Below are positions 1,847 to 46,904 of a stretch of DNA of 64,000 nt, in pieces; positions within the stretch are counted from its first letter, which is position 1, and every line of letters begins with the position of its first letter. The stretch is from Rhodospirillaceae bacterium (GTDB taxonomy: Bacteria; Pseudomonadota; Gammaproteobacteria; Steroidobacterales; Rariloculaceae): contig JAHEKF010000006.1 of NCBI GenBank assembly GCA_024638465.1, positions 10,777 through 74,776 on the forward strand, read 5' to 3'. Made by a program: the position numbers and the translations under genes. The notes below the pieces were generated by a model. It searched no databases, was not told the DNA's origin, and saw only the letters and a program-made list of their open reading frames with translations.

Positions 1847-3310
1847 ATGAGCAAGGAAGTCGGAATCAGCGGATTTGCCGTCTACGTTCCGCCGTACCGA
1901 GTCGATCTCCAGGATTGGTGCGATTGGACCGATGCACCCTGGGACAAGACCAGCGCCGTCATCGGCAACAGCTTCCGAATGCGCGGTCCGCATCAAAGCG
2001 TCTACACGATGGCTGCGACCGCCGTCATGCGACTCATCGACAATTACGAGATCGACCCGCGACGAGTCGGCTTCCTGGGGCTGGGCACGGAATCCAGTAC
2101 GGACAATTCGGCGGGCGCCGTCATTGTGAAGGGCATGATCGACGAAGCCCTTCGCGCGAGAGGCATGCCGCCCGTCAACCGTCATTGCGAAGTCCCCGAA
2201 CTCAAGCATGCCTGTCTCGGCGGCGTGTACGCAATGAAACACGGCTTGCGTTATCTCGCGCTCGAGGATCAGGATCGCTGCGCGATCGTCGTCAGCGCGG
2301 ATATCGCCGAATACGCGCGCGGCAGCTCCGGAGAGCCGACGCAGGGCGCCGGAGCCGTCGCCATGCTGCTCGAGACCGACCCCGATCTGCTGGAAATCGA
2401 TCTCAAGCGTATCGGCAGCGCTTCGGCGTATCGGGCCGTGGATTTCCGCAAGCCCGTTATGCGCAATCTCATTCGCGGCAAGCTCAACTGCCACTTCCAG
2501 GATCTGCCTGTTTTCAACGGCAAGTACTCGACGACCTGTTACCTGGACGAGACCCTGTATGCGCTCGACGACATGTTGCGCAAGCTCGGATCAGAACCCG
2601 CCGACTACTACAGAAGCCTGGCCGCAGCCTTTATGCATCGACCCTATCACCGCATGCCGATAACGTCCTTCGGGATGAGCTATCTGTTTGGCCTAGCTCA
2701 CAACGGCGCTGCGGGCATTGCCGAGCTCGATCAGCATTGCCAGGACGCGGGAATCGACGTCAATGCCGTGCTTGAAGAAATGCGCTCGGAACCGGACATC
2801 CTGCAACTCGTTCGTGACGGCGATATCGACACGGATGTTTACCCGCTCAGCGTTCAGCTGCTCAAGGAATTCCGCAAGAGCGAACTTTTCAATTCGCAGC
2901 TCGAAACCAAGATGTCGCTCGGTTCCGAACAGATGAAGGATATCGGCAACGTCTACTGCGCCGCGCTACCCGCCTGGATGGCGGCCGGACTCGAGGAGGC
3001 CGCGCTCTCGAATCGCGACCTGACTGGCGAGAAGATACTTGCGGTTGGCTACGGTAGTGGCGACGCCGCCGAAGCGATTCCGATGAAGCTGGCGGAGAAC
3101 TGGCAGGCCGCAGCCCGCAAGATCGCCTTCACGGAAGCGCTCGAACCGAAGCAAAACCTGACGCAGGCGCAGTACGAGATCCTGCACGACACGGGCGACG
3201 CGCCAGGACTCGGCGATCCCGCGGACGGTTTCGTGGTCGAGTCGGTCGGCGCGAGCTCCGATCCGAAATTCAGCGACGAAGGTATCGAGTACTACCGCTA
3301 CCTGAGCTGA
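1847..3310 (+). CDS. mvaS: hydroxymethylglutaryl-CoA synthase (long form, 487 aa)
   Basis: ATG 1847 follows AGGAG at 1835-1839. The sequence has initiation-condensing-enzyme features, with GLGTESSTDNSAG and the catalytic-Cys context ELKHACLGGVYA (ACxGG). It sits adjacent to the remaining mevalonate genes. Confidence 0.85.
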   Translation: MSKEVGISGFAVYVPPYRVDLQDWCDWTDAPWDKTSAVIGNSFRMRGPHQSVYTMAATAVMRLIDNYEIDPRRVGFLGLGTESSTDNSAGAVIVKGMIDEALRARGMPPVNRHCEVPELKHACLGGVYAMKHGLRYLALEDQDRCAIVVSADIAEYARGSSGEPTQGAGAVAMLLETDPDLLEIDLKRIGSASAYRAVDFRKPVMRNLIRGKLNCHFQDLPVFNGKYSTTCYLDETLYALDDMLRKLGSEPADYYRSLAAAFMHRPYHRMPITSFGMSYLFGLAHNGAAGIAELDQHCQDAGIDVNAVLEEMRSEPDILQLVRDGDIDTDVYPLSVQLLKEFRKSELFNSQLETKMSLGSEQMKDIGNVYCAALPAWMAAGLEEAALSNRDLTGEKILAVGYGSGDAAEAIPMKLAENWQAAARKIAFTEALEPKQNLTQAQYEILHDTGDAPGLGDPADGFVVESVGASSDPKFSDEGIEYYRYLS

Positions 3311-3401
3311 CCGCACGCCCCTCGTCCGAGACGCTCGACGAACTATCGGGGCCCTCCCAACAAGTCGCGACCGTCCCTTGCGACTCCACCATTCGTGCGG
3401 T

Positions 3402-4013
3402 TCAGAGCGCTGCGATCTGCTCGTCGAGCAGGCTCAGAAGATCGTCAGGATTACCGTCCTCCAGCGCGGCTCTGTACTCGGCCCGCTTCAACGCGAGATC
3501 ACTGACGCCGTCGGCGATGACATTGATGATCTTCCAGCCCGCGGCAGTCTCGTGCAGAAGGTATTCGATCGGAATAGCCGGCTGCGCATCGCGCCGGATA
3601 GTCGCTGTGACCATCGCGCGCCCGGAATCCAGAATCTTGGTACTTTCGATGCTGAAAGTTTCCGTGGAGACCGTCCTGAAACGAGCCGCATAAGTCATGC
3701 TGCTCAATCGCGCGAATTTCTCGATGAACGTCTCGCGCTGGGCGGCGTCGAAGCCATCCCAATATCTTCGTGTCGCGAACTGCGCGATGAAAGGCAAATC
3801 ATGGGTTTCCGAAATTAGCGGCGCAAGCTGCTCGTATCGCCGGCCGATGGAGTTCGGCTCACTTCGTGCCGCAGCGATCAGTCCCACGTGAAGCGCGTTG
3901 ACGCTGGCAAGCGGTGACTCGTACCCGGCGGATGCCGGACGCTGTGCCAACGCGCCGCTCAGCCAAATCATCGGCAGGATGACGAGCGCGGGTTTTGCGC
4001 AATGAGTCATCAT
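3402..4013 (-). CDS. hpnM: MlaC/Ttg2D-family lipid-binding periplasmic protein, hopanoid-associated (HpnM-like)
   Basis: 203 aa with a signal peptide (PALVILPMIWLSGALA). It has MlaC-like length and helix/sheet pattern. It lies immediately downstream of hpnH in the same operon. Confidence 0.75.
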   Translation of the reverse strand: MMTHCAKPALVILPMIWLSGALAQRPASAGYESPLASVNALHVGLIAAARSEPNSIGRRYEQLAPLISETHDLPFIAQFATRRYWDGFDAAQRETFIEKFARLSSMTYAARFRTVSTETFSIESTKILDSGRAMVTATIRRDAQPAIPIEYLLHETAAGWKIINVIADGVSDLALKRAEYRAALEDGNPDDLLSLLDEQIAAL

Positions 4014-4021
4014 TGAGAGTT

Positions 4022-5143
4022 TTAACGGCGATCTGAGGCGCTGCTGCCAATCTCGTCTACGGGAATCGCCACTCCCGCTGGCTTGCCGTCGTGCAGGACA
4101 GGCAATTCAGGAGCCATCTCGCCGTCGAGACGCGGCCCGAACAGGAAAACGCGGAGCGCTTTTAGCGGGTTTGCGACCGTATGGTCGACGGCCGTGCCTT
4201 CGTAGCCGCAATGCACCATGCAATCATCGCATTTGGGGTTTCGACCCGCGCCATAACGCTCCCAATCGGTCGCTTCCATAAGCTCGCTGAACGTCTCGGC
4301 ATAGCCCTCGTCGACGAGGAGATAGCACGGTTTCTGCCAACCGAAAACGTTATAGGTTGGATTGCTCCAGGGCGTGCACTGATAACTTTGATTGCCTGCG
4401 AGGAAATCCATGAACAGGCTGGATTGATTGAAACGCCATCTGCTGCCGCGCTCGCGGCCGATTTTAAAGATCTCGCGAAATAACCGCTTGGTCTGCCTGC
4501 GGCCGAGAAATACGTCCTGTCTGGGTGCGTGCTGATAGCTGTAGCCCGGCGACACGGTAATCCCTTCGAGCCCGAGAGTCATCGCGTGGTCGAAGAAATC
4601 TGCAACGTCGGCAGCATCCTCTCCATTGAACAACGTGCAGTTTGCCGTAACTCGAAACCCGCGACTGCGCGCAAGCTCGATGGCAGCGACTGCCTTATCG
4701 AACACGCCCTCACGGCAAACCGACTCATCGTGACGTTCGCGGTTACCATCGAGATGCACGGACCACGTGAAGTACGGCGATGGCTCATACTCATCTATCT
4801 TCTGCTGAAGCAGCAACGCATTGGTGCAGAGGTAGACGAATTTCTTGCGCGCGACAATTCCGCGAACGATCTTCGGCATGTCCTTGTGGATCAGTGGCTC
4901 GCCGCCCGGTATTGACACGACGGGCGCGCCGCAGTCATCCACGGCGCGGAGAGCGTCTTCGACCGACACACGCTTCTTCAGAATCTCGGCCGGATAGTCG
5001 ATCTTGCCACAGCCCGCGCAGGCCAGATTGCACTGGAACAGAGGCTCGAGCATGAGAACGAGCGGATAACGCTTTCTGCCGCGGAGCTTCTGCTCGAGTA
5101 TGTAGCGGCCGACACGGTAGGTCTGAACCAGTGGAATGCTCAT
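4022..5143 (-). CDS. hpnH: adenosylhopane synthase, radical SAM (HpnH)
   Basis: The sequence RYPLVLMLEPLFQCNLACAGCGKIDYP contains the CxxxCxxC radical-SAM motif in the characteristic HpnH context. The protein is 373 aa. Its start overlaps the idi stop (ATGA). Confidence 0.92.
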   Translation of the reverse strand: MSIPLVQTYRVGRYILEQKLRGRKRYPLVLMLEPLFQCNLACAGCGKIDYPAEILKKRVSVEDALRAVDDCGAPVVSIPGGEPLIHKDMPKIVRGIVARKKFVYLCTNALLLQQKIDEYEPSPYFTWSVHLDGNRERHDESVCREGVFDKAVAAIELARSRGFRVTANCTLFNGEDAADVADFFDHAMTLGLEGITVSPGYSYQHAPRQDVFLGRRQTKRLFREIFKIGRERGSRWRFNQSSLFMDFLAGNQSYQCTPWSNPTYNVFGWQKPCYLLVDEGYAETFSELMEATDWERYGAGRNPKCDDCMVHCGYEGTAVDHTVANPLKALRVFLFGPRLDGEMAPELPVLHDGKPAGVAIPVDEIGSSASDRR

Positions 5144-5748
5144 GTCGTTGATCGACTCTCGTTCGATATGACGGCGATCGAGCTATCGTTGCCGCCGAGA
5201 ATGTTGTCGAGATACCGGCGTGTAATTTGCGACCATTCCATCTTCAGCCAGGGAGTAAAGCTCTCGGGAGTGGCCGCGATCATCTCATCCATCGATATTG
5301 CGGGAACATAGCGAATTTCGGAGATTTCACGGTCGTTGAAATCAACGGAGCCACTGTACCGGCCGTAGTAGACCCAGCAGTATTCGTGCTCCGCGCCTAC
5401 GGCTCCATATTGCGCCTGATATTTGAACTTGTAGAGGAAATGAAGCGGACACTCGATGGCGAGTTCCTCGGCGAGACGCCGCGAGATAGCCTGCTCCATA
5501 GTTTCCCCAACGCGCGGATGCGAGCAACAGGTATTGGACCAGTATTCCGGCCACAAAGGCTTCTCCGCACTTCGACGTTGCAGCAACAATTCGTCGTCTT
5601 CATTGAACAGGAATATAGAAAACGCCCGATGGAGAATACCGTTTCCGGAATGGCAGTCGCTCTTCGCACTCTGCCCGATCTCGCGGTCGAGTTCATCGAC
5701 AAGAATCAGCTCTTCGCCGGAGCTGGATACGACTTCGCTACGTGCCAT
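5140..5748 (-). CDS. idi: isopentenyl-diphosphate delta-isomerase, type 1 (Nudix fold)
   Basis: Motifs LHRAFSIFLFN, WSNTCCSHP (catalytic Cys) and AEHEYCWVY (catalytic Glu) are present. The track ORF extends to 5865, but the ATG at 5746-5748 (MARSEVVSS...) fits IDI length and gives an 11-nt overlap with the upstream gene. Confidence 0.9.
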   Translation of the reverse strand: MARSEVVSSSGEELILVDELDREIGQSAKSDCHSGNGILHRAFSIFLFNEDDELLLQRRSAEKPLWPEYWSNTCCSHPRVGETMEQAISRRLAEELAIECPLHFLYKFKYQAQYGAVGAEHEYCWVYYGRYSGSVDFNDREISEIRYVPAISMDEMIAATPESFTPWLKMEWSQITRRYLDNILGGNDSSIAVISNESRSTT

Positions 5749-36620: not shown

Positions 36621-38105
36621 ATGACGGCCAATGGCGACAACACGGCGGGCGACGCGCCGACTTCACGCCCGCTGGTAAAGCTCGAGAACGTCGACGTCGC
36701 ACTTGCGGGCAACCGCGTGCTTCACGATCTGAACTGGGAACTGCACGCCGGAGAGCATTGGGCGATAGTCGGCGCCAACGGCAGCGGTAAGACCAGTTTT
36801 CTGCGGCTTGTCGCCGGCAATCTCTGGCCTGCGCCAAATAGTGGTAATCGACGCTATGACTTCGACGGCGATATCCAGATCGACGCCGTCCAGGCGCTCG
36901 AACGAATCACTCTGGTTGGGCACGAACTGCAGGATCGCTACACCAGACTTGGCTGGAACTTCGATGCCGTCGATGTCGTGTTGTCGGGCCTGAAGCGAAC
37001 CGACGTCCCGCGACACGAAACGGATCCGCAGGACCGTATCCGCGCCCGTGGCCTGCTGCGCAAACTCAAGCTGCTACATCTTGCCGAAAAGCCGTTCCTT
37101 GAACTCTCACGTGGCCAGCAACGCCGGGTCCTGATTGCGCGAGGACTTGCGTTCAAACCCGTCATCCTGATTCTCGACGAACCCGTCGCCGGGCTGGACG
37201 CCGAGTCGCGCCGCGCACTCAACGAAACGATCGAGCAGATCAGCGAAGACATCACGGTCCTGTGTTCTTACCACGAAGCCGCAAACCTGCCGCGTAACAT
37301 GAATCGAATCTTGCGGCTGGCCGCCGGCCACGTGACCGAGGTCGGCTCGATCGAACCGGGCAGCGACGCCTTCGGCGATCATTCGCGTGACAGCACGCCG
37401 CCACGACCCATCTCTCCCGTGACCACCGACCCCGACAAGGTCGTCATCGACGTCGCGAACGCGAGTATCTGGATCGACAAGCAGCGCGTTCTCGTCGACA
37501 TCAACTGGCGCCTGCTCGAAGGTGAGCACTGGCAGGTCATCGGCGCCAACGGCGCGGGCAAAAGCACGTTTCTGCGACTGCTGCACGGTCAGCTCCGTCC
37601 GGCGAAAGGCGGCTCGATAGAGTTTCCCGCGATTGACGATCCGGACAACGTCTGGTCGCTCCGAAGGCAGATCGCATGGGTATCACCCGAGCTTCAGGCC
37701 GGCTACTGGTATCCGTCTACCGTTTACCAGTGCATCGCGTCGGGCTTCGACTCCAGTATCGGGCAAACGCGCCGCTTGAAGCCCGATGAAGCCGAACTCG
37801 TCGACGAGCTACTCGAGCAGTTCGAGCTGTCGGATTTAAGCAAACGCAACGTGAAGGCACTTTCATACGGGCAGTTTCGCCGTGTCCTGATCGCTCGCGC
37901 GGTCGTCCATAGCCCTAAAGTCCTGCTGCTCGACGAGCCCTGGGAGGGCCTCGATCCCGGCAACCTCGAGCTCATCATGCACGAGCTGACGCAGATCATC
38001 GCGCGGGGCTCCCAGCTCATCTGCGCGACTCACTTCCATCGCCACGCCGAGCAGTTCAACAGAGAGCTGGTTCTCGAGAAAGGTCGGATCGCGCGGGCCG
38101 GATGA
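36621..38105 (+). CDS. ABC ATPase with two tandem nucleotide-binding domains (ModF-like)
   Basis: Has two Walker A motifs (GANGSGKTS, GANGAGKST), two ABC signatures (LSRGQQRR, LSYGQFRR) and two Walker B motifs (ILILDEP, VLLLDEP). No TM domain. 494 aa. Confidence 0.85.
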   Translation: MTANGDNTAGDAPTSRPLVKLENVDVALAGNRVLHDLNWELHAGEHWAIVGANGSGKTSFLRLVAGNLWPAPNSGNRRYDFDGDIQIDAVQALERITLVGHELQDRYTRLGWNFDAVDVVLSGLKRTDVPRHETDPQDRIRARGLLRKLKLLHLAEKPFLELSRGQQRRVLIARGLAFKPVILILDEPVAGLDAESRRALNETIEQISEDITVLCSYHEAANLPRNMNRILRLAAGHVTEVGSIEPGSDAFGDHSRDSTPPRPISPVTTDPDKVVIDVANASIWIDKQRVLVDINWRLLEGEHWQVIGANGAGKSTFLRLLHGQLRPAKGGSIEFPAIDDPDNVWSLRRQIAWVSPELQAGYWYPSTVYQCIASGFDSSIGQTRRLKPDEAELVDELLEQFELSDLSKRNVKALSYGQFRRVLIARAVVHSPKVLLLDEPWEGLDPGNLELIMHELTQIIARGSQLICATHFHRHAEQFNRELVLEKGRIARAG

Positions 38106-38106
38106 C

Positions 38107-38134
38107 GTTTCCGCGGAAACAATTTCTAGAAATT
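38107..38134. repeat. two abutting perfect 14-bp palindromes
   Basis: GTTTCCGCGGAAAC is immediately followed by AATTTCTAGAAATT. They begin 2 nt after the ModF-like stop, at the left edge of the low-GC island. Confidence 0.6.
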
Positions 38135-38167
38135 GCTTTAACTTCGGTTGCTAAACGGGTCGGGGCT

Positions 38168-38191
38168 GCTTCTGGCCGCCGGCAAACGTTC
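38168..38191 (+). repeat. island repeat copy A
   Basis: GCTTCTGGCCGCCGGCAAACGTTC. The core GCTTYTGGCCG is exact. 63 nt after the ModF-like stop. Confidence 0.7.
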
Positions 38192-38332
38192 GCGATGCCA
38201 ATTTGTGTGGCGTGATCTGCACAATATGTGTAGCCTGACTCAACAAGTCGAGGGTCAAGACTGTCGAACCGATCGTGGCGATCATGGCTCTCGGACACGC
38301 AAACCGTTTTGGCGACATGACTCTGGAGACTT

Positions 38333-38887
38333 ATGGTTTTTCCAAGAGTCGAAATATATACCTACGCCATCGATGAATCCGACTTGATCGAATTCGTTGA
38401 TGATGCCTGGTTAGCATTTGCGCGAGATAACGGTGCAGCTGAACTGACTCGCGACTCAGTTATTGGAAGGAGATTGTGGGATTTCATTGACGGCTCGGGT
38501 ACTCGACACTTCTATCGCGCGTTGTTCGAACGAATCAGGCTCGAGCAGTTAGAGACCGTTATCCCCTTTCGCTGCGACTCTCCGGAGCTGCAACGCTGGA
38601 TGGAGCTGCGTGTGCTCGGTGCTTCGAAGGGCCGGATAGAGTTCAGTGGACGCCTCTTGCGGGCAGAAAAACAACTTCACGTGCCTCTAATCAACTCATT
38701 GCTCGCCGGCCCGAAGCAGCGGTTTTCGATATGCAGTTTGTGTAGGCGAGTTCACGCGTTTGGCGAGTGGTTGGAGCCAGAAGTGGCGATGCAGCGGTTT
38801 CATGTGTTTGAGACAGTCCATGAACCGGCAGTCGAGCATCTTGTCTGCGATCAGTGCGCAGAACTCCTTGGCAATGCGCATGCGTAG
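38333..38887 (+). CDS. hypothetical protein; PAS-like N-terminal part plus C-terminal CxxC...CxxC
   Basis: 184-aa ORF in a low-GC stretch. The C-terminal ICSLCRRV...VCDQCAELL suggests a Zn-ribbon. I recognised no family. Confidence 0.6.
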   Translation: MVFPRVEIYTYAIDESDLIEFVDDAWLAFARDNGAAELTRDSVIGRRLWDFIDGSGTRHFYRALFERIRLEQLETVIPFRCDSPELQRWMELRVLGASKGRIEFSGRLLRAEKQLHVPLINSLLAGPKQRFSICSLCRRVHAFGEWLEPEVAMQRFHVFETVHEPAVEHLVCDQCAELLGNAHA

Positions 38888-38917
38888 TTGAGCGATAGCA
38901 GATATGGACGAGCAGCC

Positions 38918-38941
38918 GCTTTTGGCCGCAAGGATCCGTAA
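38918..38941 (+). repeat. island repeat copy B
   Basis: GCTTTTGGCCGCAAGGATCCGTAA. 31 nt after the stop of gene 38333..38887. Confidence 0.7.
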
Positions 38942-38987
38942 ACGAACAGTTAATATGCACGGAGCTGCATAAGCTGGGGGACAAGAA

Positions 38988-39464
38988 TTGAAGAAGCTCG
39001 ACTTCGGACAGGTCATCGGAATACTTGCGAATCTAGGCGTTATTGCGGGAATAGTATTTCTAGCTGTCGAGCTGCGGCAGAACAATGAACTGCTGATCGC
39101 AGAGGCGAGAGCTATGCGAACGAATCTCAGACAAGCAGACACCACTCTTGTCCTTGAGAACCCGGATCTGGGTCGTGCTCTGATAAAGCACAGGAACGAC
39201 GAGCAGCTGTCACAGTACGAGATCCAGTTGGTCAACCTGTACGTCGACTTCGTTCTTATCAATTTTCAGAACGCATATCTCGACTCCGTACGGGGATTAT
39301 CTGATTACGAGGACATTCCGGTCGAAGCCTGGAGAAAGAACTTCGGTCAGGATCCGTTGCCCTACGGATGGGTTCACATGCTCGACTACTGGCGAGAAAC
39401 CAGAGGTTTGGGTGGCTGGGACGAGGGATTTGTTGAATGGATGGAAGAAACCATAATTGAGTAA
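38988..39464 (+). CDS. hypothetical protein with N-terminal TM anchor
   Basis: 158 aa with a TTG start, one hydrophobic helix (VIGILANLGVIAGIVFLAV) and a helical soluble part. Its stop codon abuts repeat copy C. Confidence 0.55.
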   Translation: MKKLDFGQVIGILANLGVIAGIVFLAVELRQNNELLIAEARAMRTNLRQADTTLVLENPDLGRALIKHRNDEQLSQYEIQLVNLYVDFVLINFQNAYLDSVRGLSDYEDIPVEAWRKNFGQDPLPYGWVHMLDYWRETRGLGGWDEGFVEWMEETIIE

Positions 39465-39478
39465 CGTCAGGCACGGCC

Positions 39479-39502
39479 GCTTCTGGCCGGAGGCGGCCGT
39501 CT
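39479..39502 (+). repeat. island repeat copy C (centre of a 44-nt hairpin, 39464-39507)
   Basis: GCTTCTGGCCGGAGGCGGCCGTCT. The flanking arms ACGTCAG[GC]ACGGCCGC / GCGGCCGTCTGGCGT pair around it. 15 nt after the stop at 39464. Confidence 0.75.
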
Positions 39503-39591
39503 GGCGTGAGTAAATTTCTAGGGTGAATGGCAGTTGCTCGGGGTCCACGTCAATATCGGCCTCGAGCGTAGACGAAAAAGGGGGAGATAAA

Positions 39592-40338
39592 GTGGAAAGC
39601 AGCTCTTCGCTAATGACCTCAGCATTGCCAACCCGCGGTATGACATTGCGGCGAAAATTCTATGTAGCGTTGGCCATTCTGATGACGTTGACAGTAATCG
39701 TCGGTTTCTGGCCGTCGTACTATGGTCCGCTGACTCAAGGTGCGACGCAGGTTTCCTGGATTCTGCATTTTCACGGTGTCATTTACATGGGCTGGATGGG
39801 GCTGTTCATTACGCAGACGGTGCTTGCGGCAAGCGGTAGGGTTAGAGCGCATCGTTCAGTCGGATCGATTGGTATCGGTTACGGGATCGCTGTCTTGATC
39901 GTAGGCGTGATTGTGAGCTTTGCCGCGCCCATCATGCACGTGAATGCCGGAGAGTGGACTATCGACCAGGCCGCGGCTTTCCTTCCGATTCCGCTCGGAG
40001 ATATGGTGTTGTTTGGTGGCTTGTTTGGGGCAGCGATCGCATACCGTCAGAAATCGGAGATTCATAAGCGTTTGATGCTTTTGGCGACAGTTGCGCTATT
40101 GTTCGCTGCCGTATTTCGGCTGAACGCAGCCGGGTGGGCATCGTTGCCCGCGGCGATCTTCCTCTGGTACGTCCCAGTGATTCTCGGTATAGCGTACGAT
40201 GGTTTACGGCAGGGGCGTGTTCACCCCGTGTATTGGATAGGCGCCGCCGCTATGGGAATCTCGCTGTTGAAATTACCGCTAGGAACCACTGGTTTCTGGC
40301 TTGGTTTCGGTGGGCGGCTTATCGAGTCCTTAAGCTGA
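39592..40338 (+). CDS. hypothetical multi-pass membrane protein
   Basis: GTG 39592 follows a GGGGGAG Shine-Dalgarno; the track ORF starts at 39523. There are about 6-7 hydrophobic segments, with conserved-looking HFHGVIYMGW. Confidence 0.65.
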   Translation: MESSSSLMTSALPTRGMTLRRKFYVALAILMTLTVIVGFWPSYYGPLTQGATQVSWILHFHGVIYMGWMGLFITQTVLAASGRVRAHRSVGSIGIGYGIAVLIVGVIVSFAAPIMHVNAGEWTIDQAAAFLPIPLGDMVLFGGLFGAAIAYRQKSEIHKRLMLLATVALLFAAVFRLNAAGWASLPAAIFLWYVPVILGIAYDGLRQGRVHPVYWIGAAAMGISLLKLPLGTTGFWLGFGGRLIESLS

Positions 40339-40353
40339 GGGAGCGTAATCTCT

Positions 40354-40377
40354 GCTTTTGGCCGGAAGAAGCCGTAG
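40354..40377 (+). repeat. island repeat copy D
   Basis: GCTTTTGGCCGGAAGAAGCCGTAG. Imperfect arms (CTCTGCTTTT / AAGAAGC-cgt-AGAG) surround GGCCGG. 16 nt after the stop at 40338. Confidence 0.75.
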
Positions 40378-40435
40378 AGGTCGGGTCGATGCTTATTGCA
40401 CAGAGCTAGCTTTTGTCTAGTGGCGAAGTGAGATA

Positions 40436-40987
40436 GTGCTGTACGCGGCGTATGGATCTAATTTACACCCTGCTCGGCTAGGGAGGCGTTTGCCTTCAGC
40501 CACTCTCTTGGGAAAGGGTGTCGTTTCCAATCGAACGCTACGGTTTCATAAGCGTGGCAAGGATGGTTCTGCGAAGTGCGACATTATTCCCGGAAAGGAC
40601 AAGGTCTTTGTGGCTGTTTATAGAATCGGCCCTCGTGAGAAAGCCCGGTTGGATCGAATCGAAGGTAGAGGAATCGGCTATGTAGTCGAGTCTCTCAACG
40701 TGCCGAGTTATGGCGAGTGTTTCACATACGTCGCCATCGATACTCATGTTGACGAATTTCTCAAGCCTTTTTCTTGGTACAAGGAACTCGTTGTCATAGG
40801 AAGCGAATATCTGCAGTTTCCTCGGCACTACGTGAATCGGATCGCGTCGCATCAGTCGGTGGATGACCCGAATGCTGAACGGCATGCCGAACAGATGAGA
40901 ATCGTTCACTGGGCAAAACGCGGGATGAAACTCGGCGCCCAAAATACGACTGCTTCTGGCCGGGGGAAGTCACCTGTTAAAAGTTGA
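40436..40987 (+). CDS. gamma-glutamylcyclotransferase (AIG2/GGCT-like) family protein
   Basis: The N-terminal LYAAYGSNLHPARL is the YGSNL hallmark of the GGCT fold. GTG start. The 3' tail reads through repeat copy E. Confidence 0.7.
   Translation: MLYAAYGSNLHPARLGRRLPSATLLGKGVVSNRTLRFHKRGKDGSAKCDIIPGKDKVFVAVYRIGPREKARLDRIEGRGIGYVVESLNVPSYGECFTYVAIDTHVDEFLKPFSWYKELVVIGSEYLQFPRHYVNRIASHQSVDDPNAERHAEQMRIVHWAKRGMKLGAQNTTASGRGKSPVKS
40952..40975 (+). repeat. island repeat copy E (inside the 3' end of the GGCT-like ORF)
   Basis: GCTTCTGGCCGGGGGAAGTCACCT. The arms GACT[GC]TTC / GGGAAGTC pair. Confidence 0.7.
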
Positions 40988-41121
40988 CTTGCAAGCCGAC
41001 GCGCATGTGCGGACCACGGCCCCATCTATCTTGTAGCGCGGCGAGGAAAGGCTCATCCTCCGCGATAGGAGAACGGTTTAATCGGTCTGCAGTTCTTTGT
41101 GTAGCCCGATGGAGGTCATCT

Positions 41122-41616
41122 GTGACAATAATTCGACACGCGATCATAGCGTCAGCAATGACTGCAGCGGCCTGTTCACCGCCTTCCCCGGATACGAGTC
41201 GAACAGAATCCGCGGGCCCACCCGCTCCTGCTCAGGTCGCGGCATTGATCTCGGCCGCCGTGCCGGACGTCACCATCACGAGCGGCGAGCTCAGCGCCGG
41301 CAACGATCAGTACGAAGTTACTGGCACGTTGCCGAACGGCGACGAGATCGAGATCGACATAGTGCGGTCCGATGGTGAGTGGGCCGTCCAGGAGATCCAG
41401 CGCGATGTCGAGTGGTCGTCCGTGCCCGGGCCTGTCCGTGCGGCAGCTGCCGCCGCACCGGGTTCGTTTGAGCCGGTTCGCGTCATCGAGAGCTTGCAGA
41501 CGGCTGACGGCTCGGTCGTCTATGAATTGTTTCGGCAGGCAGCCGGCTCGGGCGCCTCGCGCGGTCCAGCGATGGAGGTGCGCTGGTTTGAAGGTACAGC
41601 AGAGGTGATACCTTGA
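41122..41616 (+). CDS. PepSY-like lipoprotein
   Basis: GTG 41122 lies 6 nt after GGAGG. It has the lipobox-like ASAMTAAAC|S and two YEV/YEL-type PepSY-like half-domains (DQYEVTGTLPNGDEIEIDI; GSVVYELF). The track ORF from 40984 is over-extended. Confidence 0.65.
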   Translation: MTIIRHAIIASAMTAAACSPPSPDTSRTESAGPPAPAQVAALISAAVPDVTITSGELSAGNDQYEVTGTLPNGDEIEIDIVRSDGEWAVQEIQRDVEWSSVPGPVRAAAAAAPGSFEPVRVIESLQTADGSVVYELFRQAAGSGASRGPAMEVRWFEGTAEVIP

Positions 41617-41672
41617 ATAACGACAAACACCTCTGCGATACCCAACGTCCGATCGTCCGAATGGATACGCAA

Positions 41673-41698
41673 GCTTCCAGCCAGCTGGGGTCGTAGAG
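41673..41698 (+). repeat. island repeat copy F (degenerate)
   Basis: GCTTCCAGCCAGCTGGGGTCGTAGAG. It shares GCTTC and CGTAGAG at the same offset as copy D. 57 nt after the stop at 41616. Confidence 0.45.
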
Positions 41699-41706
41699 CG
41701 GAAGGC

Positions 41707-42231
41707 TTGAAATTGAACCCATCCGGGAACCTGAAAACGCTTACCAACTACAAGGCCTGGGCCAATAGGCGCCTTTATCGAGCCCTTGACGGTATTTCAG
41801 ACGATGCGCTTGCCGCGAATCGGGCGACGCGGCTCGGAAGCATTTTGACGACGCTGAATCACTCGTACGCGATGGATCTTGTCTGGCAAGCGCATCTGGA
41901 GAGTCGCCCACACGGTTTTTCGACCAGGCGTCCGATTCTGTTCACCGCACTCGACGAACTGTGTTCTGCTCAGACGACGATCGACCAATGGTATGTCGAA
42001 TACGCCGCCGAACTGGAACCAGCGCAGGCAAAAGAAGTAGTCCCGTTCGAATTCATCGACGGAGGCCATGGAGACATCACTCGCGGCGAGATCGTGTTCC
42101 ATGTCGTGAACCATGCAACGTATCACCGAGGACACGTCACCGACGCGATGCTGCAGATTCCCATGCGACCGCCCGTGACCGACTTCCCGGTCTTTCTTCG
42201 CGACGAATCCTGCGATCAGCCCGCGCGGTGA
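41707..42231 (+). CDS. DinB-family (four-helix-bundle metal-dependent) protein
   Basis: Contains NYKAWANRRLY...LNHSYAMDLVW...HVVNHATYHRGH, the DinB/YfiT His-triad pattern. TTG start. Confidence 0.75.
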   Translation: MKLNPSGNLKTLTNYKAWANRRLYRALDGISDDALAANRATRLGSILTTLNHSYAMDLVWQAHLESRPHGFSTRRPILFTALDELCSAQTTIDQWYVEYAAELEPAQAKEVVPFEFIDGGHGDITRGEIVFHVVNHATYHRGHVTDAMLQIPMRPPVTDFPVFLRDESCDQPAR

Positions 42232-42265
42232 TCTCGCAGCGGTCACGAATCGCGAGAGCGCGGAA

Positions 42266-42289
42266 TCTGGCGAAGAAGGTAATTCCGTA
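42266..42289 (+). repeat. island repeat copy G (weak/degenerate)
   Basis: TCTGGCGAAGAAGGtaattCCGTA resembles the right half of copy D with a 5-nt insertion. 35 nt after the DinB-family stop. Confidence 0.3.
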
Positions 42290-42468
42290 TCCATCCTGGA
42301 CATCGAGAGAGAGATCGACGGGGGCGCGGATGCCGAAGTGGCGCGTATCGTCGTCGGAACAGACGATGCCCAGTCGCAACGGTTACCGGCGTTGGAGATG
42401 AGCCATATCTATTGGATGTTACCCGCGCGACGGTTGCCGACTGGATGGACAGATTAGCCAGGATCAGG

Positions 42469-42834
42469 CTAATTCATCCGCAAGGCTTTTAACTTTCGCG
42501 TGTGATGGAAGTAGTCCTCGGGTGAATCGTCGGTCTCTTCCTTCGGAGGCTCGTACCTGAACCTGCCGGTCGCCATATCGGCTAATTCTTCGAGTGTTCT
42601 TCTCTCTGTCAATGCACTGATCGGCAGCACATATTCATGGATTTGCGCTGCATCGTATTCTTGCTCGTCGGTATCGGACGGGTCTGCCTCTTCCGGATTC
42701 GAGGGCTCCCGCAACTCGTTCATCAGGAACTCGATAATTTCACTCGAGTCCAGTAGCGCGGCATCGTCGTCGGTCGCAGCGGGCGATTCCTCTCTCTCGT
42801 TCCGTTCGCGCTGCTCTTTCTTGATCTCGCTCAT
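42469..42834 (-). CDS. hypothetical highly acidic protein (121 aa, about 28% Asp+Glu)
   Basis: ORF with an ATG start. The composition was counted by hand from the track translation. No recognisable family. Confidence 0.5.
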   Translation of the reverse strand: MSEIKKEQRERNEREESPAATDDDAALLDSSEIIEFLMNELREPSNPEEADPSDTDEQEYDAAQIHEYVLPISALTERRTLEELADMATGRFRYEPPKEETDDSPEDYFHHTRKLKALRMN

Positions 42835-42886
42835 GTTGCCGTGGTGACAGAAACGACGCCTTGGGTGAATTTACCGGGCCGAAGAA

Positions 42887-43108
42887 CTACTTGAGCCCGA
42901 CCCAATGAAGAAGCTGCCGCCACCAGGGCCTGCGATCTCGCGTCGACAGTTTCTCCTGGTCATCCGCGGCGTCGTTCTCGAGCCTGTCCAGGATGTCCCT
43001 CGCCGACAGTACCTGCGCGGTCGTGGTCAGGTCGCTTTCGACGGGTTCTTCGTCGAAGGCGCTGTCAGCATCAGGAATAGCCATCGCGCGACGATAGCGC
43101 CGGCGCAT
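42887..43108 (-). CDS. hypothetical small protein (65-73 aa)
   Basis: ORF upstream of, and co-oriented with, the acidic protein gene. It has an acidic N-terminal half and a basic/aromatic tail (RRPWWRQLLHWVGLK). The start is either 43108 or 43084. Confidence 0.4.
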   Translation of the reverse strand: MRRRYRRAMAIPDADSAFDEEPVESDLTTTAQVLSARDILDRLENDAADDQEKLSTRDRRPWWRQLLHWVGLK

Positions 43109-43224
43109 CGCGGCATTCTGTGAGCTGGATCACGGTCCGGTGAATAGAGGAATTACGTCACATTCCGGTTTTACCGAATGCCCGGGTTTGGGGAGATTCG
43201 GCCACGTAGCGCACCGATTTGAGC

Positions 43225-43242
43225 GGAATTCAGACGAATTCC
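43225..43242. promoter_or_regulatory. perfect inverted repeat GGAATTC-agac-GAATTCC (candidate operator)
   Basis: Read directly from the sequence. It lies 75 nt upstream of the DUF6152-like gene start, in a 208-nt divergent spacer. Confidence 0.35.
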
Positions 43243-43316
43243 AGCCGATTTCTGCTCGAATAAAGCCCTGAACTCGGTAGAATCAGATCAGACATCGCCA
43301 TTCGAGAGGCACCCCC

Positions 43317-43703
43317 GTGGCGCACAAACGACTGTCCATATTGGTTCTCGGTTTAGGCCTTGCGCTCTTCGACCATCCAGCGCAAGCGCATCATTCCGAG
43401 CTGGCCGAGTTCGATCCGAACCAGCCTGTCAGCGTGACGGGCATACTGCGCAAGGTCGAGTGGCAAAACCCGCACGTCTGGTTTTTCGTGGATGTAACGG
43501 AAGCAGACGGCACGGTGACCACCTGGGGCTTTTCGACGTCGCCGCCGGGATCATTGATGCGACGAGGGGTCACGAAAGATGCGATGCGGATCGGCGCCGT
43601 AGTCAACGTCGAAGGCTCACGCGCGCGCGACGGGTCTAACCACTCATCGACACGGCGATTCACGTTCGAAGACGGTACCGCCGTGCTCGCACGACCGGAA
43701 TAA
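43317..43703 (+). CDS. secreted DUF6152-like protein
   Basis: The signal peptide ends AQA, so the mature N-terminus is HHSELAEFD. The sequence VEWQNPHVWFFVDV...TWGF...PGSLMRRG resembles the DUF6152 family, recalled from memory. GTG start. Confidence 0.7.
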   Translation: MAHKRLSILVLGLGLALFDHPAQAHHSELAEFDPNQPVSVTGILRKVEWQNPHVWFFVDVTEADGTVTTWGFSTSPPGSLMRRGVTKDAMRIGAVVNVEGSRARDGSNHSSTRRFTFEDGTAVLARPE

Positions 43704-43720
43704 CGAGAGGGAGGACAACA

Positions 43721-44491
43721 ATGCGCAAACAGTGGATCGGCTCGGTAATCGTGCTGGCGGCGATACTGCTCGGGGGGCCCTCGCAGGCACAGTCTGAGCA
43801 GGAAGTGCCGCGAATGGCGGACGGCAAGCCGGATTTTTCCGGAATCTACACACCTCCGGCCACGGTCAATGGAACCGGCCCACGCGGCAACCTGATCTTC
43901 AACGAGCCTAATCTGGCTCCGGTGAAACCCGGCGCAGAGAGTCTGCTTTATATTCCACGTACCGGCGATGCGCGGATCGATGAACCACGCGCGATGTGCC
44001 TGCCGGCGGGATTCCCGTCCGGGATGCTTTACATCCTGCCCATCCAGTTTATCCAGAATCCGGACTACCTTGTCATTATTCCGGAACTACAGCGTGCGGC
44101 TCGAATCATTCCGACGGACGGGCGTCCGCACCGCGAAGGGCTCGAGCCATCGTATTACGGCGATTCCGTCGGGCACTGGGAAGACGACACACTGGTCATC
44201 GAGACTGTCAATTTCAAACGCTGGATCCTCGACGACTACCACTACACGGACCCGACAAAGAGCCGCTGGCATAGCGATGCGATGACGACGACCGAACGCT
44301 TGCGCCGTGTGGGCAACACACTCGAGTACCAGATCACAATCGACGACCCGAAGATTTTCGAGCATCCCTGGTCGCAGGATTTCGAGCTGACGCTGCGACC
44401 GGACTGGGAGCCGCTGGGCCTGCTCGAGTATGCCTGCGAGGCAGGCAATCGCTGCGCCGGTGGCGACTGTAGCGGAGATGCTCCGCCTTAG
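43721..44491 (+). CDS. secreted hypothetical protein (frequent partner of DUF6152-type genes)
   Basis: 256 aa with a signal peptide (VLAAILLGGPSQAQ). It begins 17 nt after the preceding gene. I recognised no family. Confidence 0.7.
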   Translation: MRKQWIGSVIVLAAILLGGPSQAQSEQEVPRMADGKPDFSGIYTPPATVNGTGPRGNLIFNEPNLAPVKPGAESLLYIPRTGDARIDEPRAMCLPAGFPSGMLYILPIQFIQNPDYLVIIPELQRAARIIPTDGRPHREGLEPSYYGDSVGHWEDDTLVIETVNFKRWILDDYHYTDPTKSRWHSDAMTTTERLRRVGNTLEYQITIDDPKIFEHPWSQDFELTLRPDWEPLGLLEYACEAGNRCAGGDCSGDAPP

Positions 44492-44545
44492 AGGCTTTGT
44501 CCTGCGAGTACCTCGAATCACACCGACCGAGTTTCACTTCGAGAC

Positions 44546-45370
44546 ATGAAACCGAAAGCGCTACCAATCACGCGTCTTATCGTGTTTCTGATAAGCATTC
44601 AGTGCGGGACGCTGTCGGCTCAGGTCGCGGAGGACGAGGCGCTCGTCGAAGCGCTTGCGTCGACGGGAGAGATTCGCGCCGCATTTCTCGGCGCCAACCC
44701 CGTGCAGATCCAGATCGATTTGCAGACCGGTGAGATCGGCGGACCTGCTGCCGACGTTGCCAGGGAGATCGCGCGCCGGCTCGGCACTGCGCTATCCATT
44801 CAACCGCTCTCGGGTGTACCCGCAGTCATCGAAGCCGTCAGCAGCGGCTCCGCAGACATCGGCTTTATCGCTTACGACACCACTCGCGCGCAGCGTGTTT
44901 CGTTCACTCAGGCCTATATCTACGGTCACAACAGCTATATCGTCCGTACGGACTCCGCGCTGCGGAGCTTCGCCGACGTCGATCGTGAAGGCATGCGTAT
45001 CGCGGCGATCTCCGGTAACGCTGTCGATTTGCACCTCGGACGTACACTCGAAAATGCTGAACTGGTTCATCTGGCCAGAGGGACGCAGGACGAGGAAGCG
45101 GCCAGGATGATTCTCGCCGGAGAAATCGATGCTTACGCCGCGAACAAGCAACGTCTCGCCGCAGTCATCGCCGTAGAACCTCGCGTTCGCGTACTCGACG
45201 GAAGCGTTCTTCCGGTGGAACAGTCAATCGTGGTTGCACACGAAAACGCGGACTTGCTGCCGCCACTGAACCTGTTGATCGACGAGCTTCGAACTTCCGG
45301 TGTTCTGCAGGAGATCGTTGATCGATATAGCATCGCCGGCGTTGAAGTCGCGCCGGGCGGCGGACGCTAG
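44546..45370 (+). CDS. periplasmic substrate-binding protein, family 3 (PBP2-type), orphan
   Basis: Has a signal peptide and a two-lobe SBP pattern (ADIGFIAYDTTRAQRVSF...; IDAYAANK). No permease or ATPase gene is adjacent. Confidence 0.7.
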   Translation: MKPKALPITRLIVFLISIQCGTLSAQVAEDEALVEALASTGEIRAAFLGANPVQIQIDLQTGEIGGPAADVAREIARRLGTALSIQPLSGVPAVIEAVSSGSADIGFIAYDTTRAQRVSFTQAYIYGHNSYIVRTDSALRSFADVDREGMRIAAISGNAVDLHLGRTLENAELVHLARGTQDEEAARMILAGEIDAYAANKQRLAAVIAVEPRVRVLDGSVLPVEQSIVVAHENADLLPPLNLLIDELRTSGVLQEIVDRYSIAGVEVAPGGGR

Positions 45371-45381
45371 ACCCGGTCTGA

Positions 45382-45573
45382 ATGCTGCCGAGCGAAGTAA
45401 TCGACTGTCCCTATTGTGGCGAGACGATCGAAGTGGTCATTGACGATTCTGTTGATCAGCAGGAATACGTGGAAGACTGTTCGGTTTGCTGCCGGCCAAT
45501 CAACATAGCCACTTCGGTCGATCATCGAGGCGAGGTCAGCGTACGCTGCTGGACCGATACCGAGATCTTTTAG
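45382..45573 (+). CDS. CPXCG-motif cysteine-rich small protein
   Basis: 63 aa containing CPYCGE...CSVCCRP, which matches the family name pattern. Confidence 0.75.
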
Positions 45574-45959
45574 GCCTGCGGCTGGAGGCGGCGAACTTCA
45601 TTGAAGTTCGACCAATGCGCGCCGGCGAGAATCAGGCTGCCGACGACACTAATGACAATTTCGAGGTATTCGGGCCAGGTGCCGTGACCCGTTAACGCCG
45701 CGACCGTCAGCAGGCTCATACCAACGAGGCCGAAACTGGCAATTTCCGGTCGTCGATGGCCGCGAAAACCGAGATAGAACCCGAGCAAACTCGTCGGTAG
45801 CACGACCCATAGCATGAACCAGTGGAAATGCGCATCTCCTCCGAAACGAACGGCAGCCAGCGGCAGCGTTGCGACGAGCAGCGTCACGGCCAGGCAATGT
45901 GCAAGGCAGATGGCTGATAGCGCGATCGCGAGCCGGTCGAGTTGCCGGGAGGGGCTCAT
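45570..45959 (-). CDS. MerC-domain membrane protein
   Basis: [19 protein letters not shown] is the MerC-type N-terminal Cys pair within TM1. Four TM helices. 129 aa. Confidence 0.75.
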
Positions 45960-46142
45960 GGTCGATAGGGAACTAGCGTGGTTGGCCGAAACGTGGCGGG
46001 CAAGGATACCGCAGTGCGCTCAGGGTCGCTATCGCCAGCCTCCGGGTTGTGCGGCCATGACGCTGGCGCCTTCAGCGCACGCTCGCTAACATCGCCGCTC
46101 GGAGATGGAACCGACAAGCAGCCAGGCGGAGCACACTGGGCC

Positions 46143-46904
46143 ATGGAATTGAAAAGCAAGACCGTAATCATTACAGGCGCAGCGCGCGGACTGGGTGCCG
46201 CCATTGCACAGGGACTGGCTAGCCAGGGAGCCGATCTCGCACTGGTAGACCTCGACACCGACTCACTGAATGCAACACAGAATGCGTGTGAACAGCTCGG
46301 CGTGGTCTCGCGTCGCTATGCGGCGAACGTCGCAGATGAATCGCAAGTCGTCTCCTGCGTGAGCCAGATCGCGGAGGACTTCGGACGTATCGACGGGCTC
46401 GTCAATAACGCCGGAATTCTCCGCGACGGCTTGCTCGTAAAAGCCAAGGACGACGAGATCGCAAGCAAAATGAGTCTCGATGACTGGCAAGCCGTCATCG
46501 ACGTCAACCTCACGGGTGTGTTCCTGTTTGGTCGCGAAGCGGCCGAACGAATGATTTTGTTCGGCGATGGCGGCTGCATCGTCAATATCTCGAGCATTTC
46601 CCGCTTCGGTAATTTCGGCCAGAGCAATTACTCCGCGGCAAAAGCCGGTGTAGCCGCACTGACTGTAGTGTGGTCGAAGGAACTCGCGCGTCACGGAATT
46701 CGCGTCAATGCAATCGCGCCGGGATTCGTTAATACGGAAATGGTCGCCAGCATGAAACCTGAAGTTCTCGAGCGCGCGAAGTCGCATATTCCACTCGGCC
46801 GGCTTTGCGAGCCTGACGAGATCGCGCACGCAGCGATCTTTCTGTTCGAGAACGACTACATGGATGGTCGCGTCATCGAAATCGACGGGGCACAGCGACT
46901 CTGA
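46143..46904 (+). CDS. short-chain dehydrogenase/reductase (FabG-like)
   Basis: Starts at ATG 46143 (MELKSKTVIITGAARGLG, i.e. TGxxxGxG). Also has NNAG and YSAAK (YxxxK). The track ORF from 45978 is over-extended. Confidence 0.88.
   Translation: MELKSKTVIITGAARGLGAAIAQGLASQGADLALVDLDTDSLNATQNACEQLGVVSRRYAANVADESQVVSCVSQIAEDFGRIDGLVNNAGILRDGLLVKAKDDEIASKMSLDDWQAVIDVNLTGVFLFGREAAERMILFGDGGCIVNISSISRFGNFGQSNYSAAKAGVAALTVVWSKELARHGIRVNAIAPGFVNTEMVASMKPEVLERAKSHIPLGRLCEPDEIAHAAIFLFENDYMDGRVIEIDGAQRL

Follow-up and report, generated by a model that had tools for sequence, protein, structure and literature searches.

Which element does the 11-mer GCTTYTGGCCG belong to, which follows one gene after another in part of the 64-kb window considered here (i.e., the whole stretch of contig JAHEKF010000006.1 that was analysed), and does this element mark the limits of gene modules? 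The genome carrying the window is called G000 below, its congeners G001 to G007, and the array loci or contigs that were compared bear L-numbers; all genomes are metagenome-assembled genomes (MAGs) and their array contigs are short. As judged from sequence comparison, the 11-mer comprises the innermost part of the left arm and the spacer of a composite, lineage-specific palindromic intergenic repeat of 55-90 bp. The following is secure: (i) a lineage-specific composite repeat with a dyad core stands between co-oriented accessory genes in variable, insertion-prone arrays; (ii) this repeat coincides with the joints of reshuffled modules; (iii) it belongs neither to the attC nor to the RAYT-REP (repetitive extragenic palindrome) nor to the terminator class. 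Recombination at the repeat as the origin of the arrays, and the acting enzyme, are what we infer beyond these points. The most likely role of the repeat, to which an even chance is given, is that of a portable junction for the gain, loss and exchange of gene modules.

Copies in the window and anatomy of the repeat

Exactly five matches to GCTTYTGGCCG are found in the window, all on the + strand (38168, 38918, 39479, 40354 and 40952; copies A to E below), as the initial annotation had reported. The chance expectation from shuffled sequence is 0.07, and none of 100 shuffles reached five matches. Copies A to D follow the stops of consecutive + strand open reading frames (ORFs) by 62, 30, 14 and 15 nt, respectively, and the core of copy E is localized within the 3' tail of a + strand ORF (40436-40987). 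The placement first described, i.e., shortly after the stops of consecutive genes with copy E in an ORF tail, is thus confirmed. The G+C content is 53% over 38-41 kb vs. about 60%, and the GC skew is reversed in sign there.

A covariance model of the family, R1, was built in this analysis; E-values of the models built here are rough. The copies, the border repeat and two further copies claimed to be degenerate are as follows.

38908..38962, + strand: copy B; R1 45.3 bits, E 2.5e-13 (rough)
39469..39523, + strand: copy C; R1 45.8 bits, right-hand extension degenerate
40344..40398, + strand: copy D; R1 37.5 bits
40942..40996, + strand: copy E; R1 43.8 bits, core then GTTAAAAGTTGAC, inside the tail of the AIG2-like ORF
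38107..38190, + strand: left-border repeat, GTTTCCGCGGAAAC AATTTCTAGAAATT GCTTTAACTTC...GCTAAAC..., ending in copy A
41673..41700, + strand: claimed degenerate copy; not a family member, fold z -0.61
42266..42289, + strand: claimed degenerate copy; not a family member, fold z -0.63

Copy B is the best-preserved type-1 element of the window: its core is followed by GTTAATATGCA-N6-TGCATAA-GCTGGGGGA and then by a TTG start at 38988, and its right-hand extension agrees with the genus consensus. The core of copy D continues with CCGTAGAGGTCGGGTCGA, which resembles the type-2 tail GAGACTGAGTCTAAAT of other contigs (the comparison was made with the copies on C62, C64 and C71), and copy D is probably the type-2 form. 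In the case of copy A, R1 matches just the 18-nt core GCTTCTGGCCG (model positions 10-27, 8 bits); this copy belongs to a separate, longer border repeat and is not a full family element. Neither of the two degenerate copies proposed at 41673 and 42266 is found by R1, even with filters off and E <= 10, and their folds are not unusual. The observation holds for five copies, four of them full, and fails for the two degenerate ones.

Segments 88-93% identical to the left-border repeat are present in G000 at C86:77648 and C124:5218. The left border of the island (38107-38165) consists of the twin palindromes GTTTCCGCGGAAAC and AATTTCTAGAAATT, then GCTTTAACTTC..GCTAAC; this repeat of ~70 nt also occurs at C86:77648-77719 and C124:5215-5287 of G000 and leads into the core hairpin every time. 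A relic of the border (ccattctagaaatgacttcg) is retained at the empty site of G005. The border motif TTCTAGAAATNNNTTTAA has no match in any array locus fetched.

The canonical form of the element was read from the better-preserved copies of the congeners. Its core is a dyad of 12-bp arms, GAATGTCCGCTT and AAGCGGACATTC, flanking a TGGCCG spacer, and the right arm has the degenerate form AAGC(A/G)G(A/C)C(A/G)TTC. The canonical 3' part is GTTAAC-N-GTTAATATGCA-N6-TGCATAT-CTGGGGGA, where CTGGGGGA is a ribosome-binding site. In other words, type 1 has a one-sided extension (TTAAC-N-GTTAA, ATATGCA-N6-TGCATAT and a GGGGGA ribosome-binding site) that runs into the next gene. The full canonical order is an optional GCATATTAAC-N-GTTAAC, GAATGTCCGCTT, (A)TGGCCG(A), the right arm, the extension, 5-9 nt and the start codon, with the consensus CCGAATGTCCGCTTA-TGGCCGAAAGCAGCCGTTCGTTAAC-AGTTAATATGCA for 146 distinct copies. 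Outer inverted arms (GCATATTAAC.GTTAAC...GTTAAC.GTTAATATGC) are present in about a fifth of the canonical copies, and some genus copies are complete long palindromes. Type 2 has an identical core, continues with GAGACTGAGTCTAAAT, often with a second hairpin of the same stem, and is found on C62, C64, C71 and C86 and in L095/L163. The element is confined to extragenic space, as short imperfect palindromes.

Longer combinations also occur. A repeat of up to ~390 nt (C62:35822-36207 and C71:1409-1784, 88% identical over 389 nt) comprises a type-1-like hairpin, TTTATGCACGTTTTCAGAWATATGCGAATG and a type-2 element, and its core part is seen as well at C59:~4870-4960 and C64:~60-160. At ~600-640 of G000 C59 (minus strand), a tRNA-like sequence (…GGTAGCTCAGCTGGATAGAGCG…) is found directly downstream of a repeat doublet of that contig.

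Among the window copies only copy C has well-paired arms: its DNA fold gives the 19-bp stem with a 2-nt bulge that had been noticed at the outset (-17.8 kcal/mol, z = -4.0). The folding of copies A, B, D and E is not better than that of shuffled sequence. The earlier remark that the sequence is more conserved than the pairing is correct, since only copy C folds better than shuffles. In the 146 copies, pairing of the stem reaches 79.9% of cells vs. 79.3% after random exchange of arms between copies, and over half of the copies have no pair at two of the stem positions. RNAalifold recovers just a 4-bp TGGC/GCCG helix. The invariant positions are dyad-symmetric and the variable ones have no compensation. 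A selected hairpin was ruled out, the 10-bp stem being no better than shuffles either in the G000 copies or in the 146 copies. This pattern speaks for two half-sites in double-stranded DNA and against a folded strand; the independent variation of the arms would fit such a site, or hybrid sites. It must be noted that linkage between arm positions fades within a few bases everywhere, one arm included, thus a crossover hotspot is not locatable in this way.

Joints of the modules, arrays and hosts

Junctions were obtained from an all-against-all comparison of the array loci, as pairs at 93-99% identity that lose homology inside contigs. In all eight inspectable pairs with a junction near an element, homology is lost within the element; none of the eight involves the window's own modules. 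The positions are the following.

L093/L091: identical through the upstream gene, the left arm and GCTTCTGGCCG; divergence thereafter
L124/L176: common sequence from the spacer rightwards
L147/L156, first junction: common sequence from the spacer rightwards
L031/L032: break at the start of the left arm
L123/L126: break directly past the right arm
L147/L156, second junction: break past GTTAATATGCA
L108/L168: break past GTTAATATGCA
L095/L163: divergence in the type-2 tail

Sixteen of the 36 true breakpoints lie <=76 nt from an element, while such windows make up about 4-9% of the sequence searched (author's estimate). Near-identical modules appear with different neighbours in different genomes, and their joints coincide with the repeat, not with one base of it. 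The initial annotation had suggested comparing module boundaries elsewhere with the motif and had considered that a lack of gene-content breakpoints at the motif would speak against it. Such breakpoints do exist, and the boundaries coincide with the motif in the eight pairs, though not at one base.

The array statistics cover 292 elements on 131 contigs. Neighbouring elements are on the same strand in 146 of 154 pairs (95%), aligned with the direction of the genes, and their spacing has a median of 1165 bp (interquartile range 653-1564, 5-95% range 440-2741). The start of the element is mostly 0-80 nt past the stop of the upstream co-directional ORF. For about 8 of 42 elements, 19-27 nt separate the 3' end from a start codon that has a Shine-Dalgarno sequence in front of it; the genes that follow are unrelated. 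The repeat is located in short spacers and oriented like the genes, therefore it marks the joints between modules of one or two genes. It must also be noted that an element is <=150 nt away from 61 of 262 locus ends. Upstream, three arrays (G003, G005) are flanked by housekeeping genes (pantothenate kinase, enoyl-CoA hydratase, nitronate monooxygenase, cytochromes), and no recombinase is found at these array heads. Small arrays of modules have built up in this way at many places of the chromosome, with housekeeping genes on either side.

In G000 C120 1600-7000, a 0.5-kb spacer (~2930-3410) separates two diverging arrays, with elements at 1639 and ~2916 on the - strand and at 4245, 5680 and 6966 on the + strand; no recombinase was detected there. 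Secreted proteins whose predicted mature N-terminus starts with HHS recur as repeat-adjacent cargo in several G000 arrays; they are DUF6152-like, of ~120 and ~340 aa (C119 2755-3786 and others; 43317-43703 in the window).

The genome G000 (3.26 Mb, 153 contigs, 88% complete) contains 22 exact motif copies and 36 R1 hits; about 24 elements with >=20 bits are distributed on 13 contigs, where most of them are clustered and many stand near a contig end. The motif, initially described as specific to the island, is so within the window but not within the genome. The hundreds of dispersed copies that would have made it an ordinary REP family were not found either: the copies are counted in tens and are clustered. 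The R1 element occurs in 8/8 genomes of the genus, with 1-60 hits per genome (both strands counted), and gives no hit in most sister genera of the family and order. In G064, from another family of the same order, ~40 weaker R1 hits correspond to the bare hairpin, often as a doublet, scattered over many contigs.

Type-1 elements were searched specifically with a 27-nt degenerate pattern. This pattern is found at 36 loci of a collection of species genomes, most of which are deep-sea or sediment gammaproteobacterial MAGs by isolate name, one locus being in a MAG labelled Candidatus Rariloculaceae, i.e., the family of the window's genome; at least 120 metagenome contigs carry the type-1 pattern. 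Several of the 27-nt loci are short contigs binned as Gemmatimonadales, Chloroflexota, Alphaproteobacteria or Planctomycetaceae. L072, L075, L077-L079, L084, L086 and L098 are binned in Gemmatimonadales MT2bin.7, and L071, L081 and L101 in unrelated phyla. Since L101 (labelled Planctomycetaceae) is 99% identical to G003:C51, the short contigs of foreign phyla are probably mis-binned, as a result of the odd composition or coverage of arrays. As the array contigs are short, terminate at the repeat and are placed in MAGs of unrelated phyla, the accessory genes of the lineage are systematically misassigned.

The array of the window itself is a strain-specific insertion, described by the following features.

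38106..46050, no strand: G000-specific insertion of ~7.9 kb between two core genes
36621..38105, + strand: core gene of the left flank, double ABC-ATPase, ModF-like (Pfam ABC_tran 1.3e-50; NCBIfam ModF-like)
38333..42231, + strand: six co-oriented module genes, from the ORF list and family searches

The ABC-ATPase gene is syntenic in six congeners. In G001, G002, G003, G005 and G007 the next gene, 25-350 nt further on, is the SDR gene whose start is at 46143 in the window; as these flanking core genes are adjacent in five congeners, the stretch from 38106 to about 46050 is a 7.9-kb insertion of G000. The repeat-punctuated modules fill just its left 4 kb (38.1-42.3 kb), and the rest consists of accessory genes without repeats. 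The six module genes encode, in order, a protein of 184 aa without family, a small membrane protein of 158 aa, a membrane protein of about 250-271 aa, and AIG2/GGCT-like (ORF 40436-40987, matching AIG2_2 / GGACT), PepSY-like and DinB proteins; these proteins have unrelated functions, for the most part unknown. Within the genus, only distant paralogues of the 158-aa cassette protein are found. The gene 44546-45370 has no adjacent repeat in G000, while its homologue is flanked by repeats in G001:C32 and G002:C45 and preceded by one in G003:C153, and its neighbours differ among genomes. With one well-preserved copy, three with degenerate extensions and one reduced to the core, the window shows an old, partly decayed array.

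Proposed recombination at the repeat and competing explanations

If the repeat is a portable junction, recombination between two repeats would excise or insert a module, and both joints would then have a hybrid repeat. Such an exchange could either be site-specific, in the core, or depend on RecA and use the 55-90 bp of shared sequence. Several observations weigh against such a role: (i) 10 of 18 unique breakpoints are away from any detected element; (ii) the junctions are scattered, i.e., three in the spacer, one where the left arm begins, one past the right arm, two past GTTAATATGCA and one in the type-2 tail, which argues against precise site-specific exchange because this would give one crossover point; (iii) no alternative order of the window's own modules was found, and two Logan contigs are identical to the window; (iv) no recombinase is consistently linked to the element, only XerC/XerD being constant in the genus and other tyrosine recombinases sporadic; (v) the core may be an ordinary repeat, co-opted or passive, since the hairpin of G064 is dispersed without such arrays; (vi) the extension is at a fixed distance from a Shine-Dalgarno sequence and start codon, which is compatible with an expression signal as well. 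With scattered junctions and no linked enzyme, plain homologous recombination agrees with the data no less than a site-specific reaction does, and the enzyme may be homologous recombination only.

XerC and XerD are represented by two strong PF00589 hits in 7/8 genomes of the genus (C37 and C114 in G000) and by one recovered in G001. A FimB/XerA-like tyrosine recombinase of 206 aa is encoded directly before an element in G001:C13 (L227, 44-664). C-terminal fragments of another small tyrosine recombinase, ending in ...HTVRYTEL..DRFNGFW.D, are adjacent to elements on the metagenome contigs L223 (14-225) and L213 (~355-590). These sporadic recombinases are leads, not an association. A dif-like site was rejected as an identity of the element, the core having no similarity to the proteobacterial dif consensus; TGCATATTAAC-TGTTAA partly resembles the XerD side of dif, but only if a 2-nt gap is allowed, and this resemblance was dropped. 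No dif-like 28-mer was found in G000 within 7 mismatches, nor with looser patterns. The recombination core site proposed initially is thus sustained in part: the anatomy of arms and spacer and the boundaries inside the element (8/8) agree with it, while the position of exchange is not fixed, there is no dedicated recombinase and the site is not dif-like.

A stronger and doubtful version of the junction role is a second, integron-independent cassette system, in which a lox/dif-like dyad site in double-stranded form would serve for the capture and reshuffling of modules. This site would be made of the 12-bp arms around TGGCCG and of a TTAAC-N-GTTAA block as accessory part. Its recombinase would be encoded off the array, the candidates being the XerC/XerD of the host or a small FimB-like enzyme such as the 206-aa one of G001:C13, and the system would have replaced, in its niche, the classical integrons that sister genera have.

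Three other explanations have to be weighed against the portable junction. It is possible, although not the expected outcome, that the element is an ordinary repeat in accessory spacers, of the REP/BIME (bacterial interspersed mosaic element) or MITE (miniature inverted-repeat transposable element) type, with shuffling as an incidental effect of homologous recombination and no dedicated boundary role. The dispersed bare hairpins of G064, often doublets with a second hairpin of the same stem, the variation from 1 to 60 copies among congeners, the scatter of the junctions, the complete long palindromes with outer inverted arms and the GAGTAA direct repeat on both sides of copy C all agree with it. 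However, RAYT (Y1_Tnp, PF01797) is found neither in G000, of which only 88% is covered, nor in 10 other element-bearing genomes, while 6 of 14 control genomes are positive, and RAYT-REP is thus ruled out. Moreover, the copies are strongly clustered (in G000, 24 on 13 contigs) and do not show the high, dispersed copy number of REP; 95% of neighbours are co-oriented with the genes, which a symmetric selfish palindrome need not be; the conserved one-sided extension reaches the ribosome-binding site of the next gene; and the arms do not covary, yet hairpin-dependent HUH transposition needs a stem, which is not maintained here for single-stranded recognition (79.9% vs. 79.3%). The reading as a REP or terminator-like element made at the outset is kept as far as a lineage-specific palindromic repeat is concerned, but not for RAYT, a T-tract or hundreds of dispersed copies. 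That of a MITE remnant is not supported in general: the GAGTAA duplication is seen at copy C only, no pair of filled and empty sites was found, and the outer arms are limited to about a fifth of canonical copies. An effect on expression is unlikely. In this case the arrays would exist because every gene has its own signal: the dyad, centred ~37 bp upstream of a weak -10 (TAATAT), would serve as operator or activator site, or else it would stabilise the mRNA of the upstream gene at its 3' end, and the extension would be a common 5' leader with ribosome-binding site. The orientation of the element follows that of the genes, 19-27 nt separate its end from the Shine-Dalgarno sequence and start codon of unrelated genes in about 8 of 42 copies, and dyad-symmetric invariant positions with uncompensated variable ones are typical of the site of a dimeric DNA-binding protein. 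On the other side, no sigma-70-like promoter coincides with any window copy; an intrinsic terminator is ruled out, since no copy has a T-run and the stem is followed by TCGGTTAAC...; no Rfam family matches the element; and the arrays have no linked regulator gene. The leader part is missing from copies A, C, D and E of the window, which yet keep the core, and an expression signal leaves unexplained that homology breaks, and contigs end, inside the element.

A decayed or atypical integron array, i.e., a cluster of attC sites lacking integron-integrases (CALIN), in which the repeat would be a divergent attC and the integrase would be missing from the assemblies, is very improbable, and this reading is largely refuted. 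The architecture is integron-like, with small unrelated genes in the same orientation and one site 3' of each ORF, right past the stop (146/154 pairs; gaps mostly 0-80 nt). IntI is frequent in the sister genera (27 of 81 relatives), where it goes with attC arrays of the classical GCCTAAC...GTTAGGC form, and the TATTAAC...GTTAATA ends of full-length genus copies, present in about a fifth of the canonical ones, loosely resemble R''/R'. Nineteen attC sites from three relatives were used for a covariance model of attC, R2. With this model, 12 attC sites not used in building it are detected in L020 and additional ones in L024, but none in the window, in 13 array loci or in 7/8 genomes of the genus. 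IntI (TIGR02249) is above cut-off in none of the 8 genus genomes, two of which are 95-96% complete with many elements, and it was not found in about 190 array contigs. An attC site is thus ruled out by the model and by the absence of IntI. Furthermore, the integron arrays of the relatives are devoid of the element. Paired RYYYAAC...GTTRRRY boxes are present in no window copy, the left AAC box missing at the symmetric position and copies C and D having no GTT box at the aligned position; the left R''-like box is absent from most copies of the family. Junctions are not at the attC G|TT cassette boundary, just two of them being compatible with a boundary near GTTAAT. Finally, each genome has many small arrays, beside housekeeping genes.

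Two observations are added here. The sister genera possess sedentary chromosomal integrons (L017 in G023, L018 in G012, L019 in G010, L020 in G033 and L024 in G064), whose attC sites are homogeneous, Xanthomonas-like and of ~100 nt (GCCTAACAATGCGCTGCAG...GCTGAGCTTGGTCGTTAGGC), with at least 19 cassettes in L017. In the array contig L026 of G001, positions 5579-5646 of the - strand give a sub-threshold match to Rfam int-alpA (30.6 vs. a gathering threshold of 35.8 bits); this match, outside the element, is the only Rfam hit obtained.

Significance and comparison with known systems

If modules are exchanged at the repeat, the arrays would represent an integron-like organisation of accessory genes without attC or IntI, in an abundant uncultured marine and sediment gammaproteobacterial lineage whose sister genera carry integrons. 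This would widen the repertoire of cassette systems and would provide a short, well-delimited DNA site on which a new recombination activity could be sought. If the element is only REP-like, it would still be a RAYT-less, array-forming palindromic family without maintained stem.

The comparison with integron cassette arrays and CALINs with attC sites (Cury et al. 2016, PMC4889954; Neron et al. 2022, PMC9024848) shows common properties: co-oriented, mostly single-gene modules of unrelated or unknown functions; one imperfect palindrome per gene, a few bases past the stop, with a spacing of 0.4-2.7 kb; a content that is hypervariable between genomes, and assemblies that break at the repeats. Unlike attC, which conserves the terminal R/L boxes, the repeat conserves its centre and a 3' extension, and its arms are without attC pattern. 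Many small arrays per genome are observed here vs. one platform with attI and Pc.

REP, BIME and REPIN elements are mobilised by RAYT transposases (Bertels and Rainey 2011, PMC3116915). As these elements, the repeat is a short imperfect extragenic palindrome, lineage-specific, variable in copy number and sometimes in doublets (G064, type 2). It differs by the lack of RAYT in the 11 genomes searched, by tens and not hundreds of copies, by clustered, co-oriented arrays punctuated by genes, by a one-sided extension and by a stem whose pairing is not maintained. With terminators and mRNA-stabilising 3' hairpins it shares a GC-rich inverted repeat right past the stops, oriented with transcription; on the contrary, it has no T-tract, four of the five window copies are not folded beyond shuffles and no compensatory change is seen in 146 copies.

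The last comparison is with the dif modules of Acinetobacter plasmids, with their pdif (plasmid dif) sites and XerC/XerD (PMC6449649, PMC13141974). The site differs from pdif in that it has no resemblance to dif (11-6-11, AT-rich), that flanking sites are co-oriented (95%) whereas those of pdif are alternating or opposite, and that the location is chromosomal and not plasmid-borne. In both cases, small accessory gene modules are bounded by short two-arm dyad sites with a central spacer, and shuffling between replicons takes place without module-encoded recombinase, XerC and XerD being the only universal tyrosine recombinases of the host.

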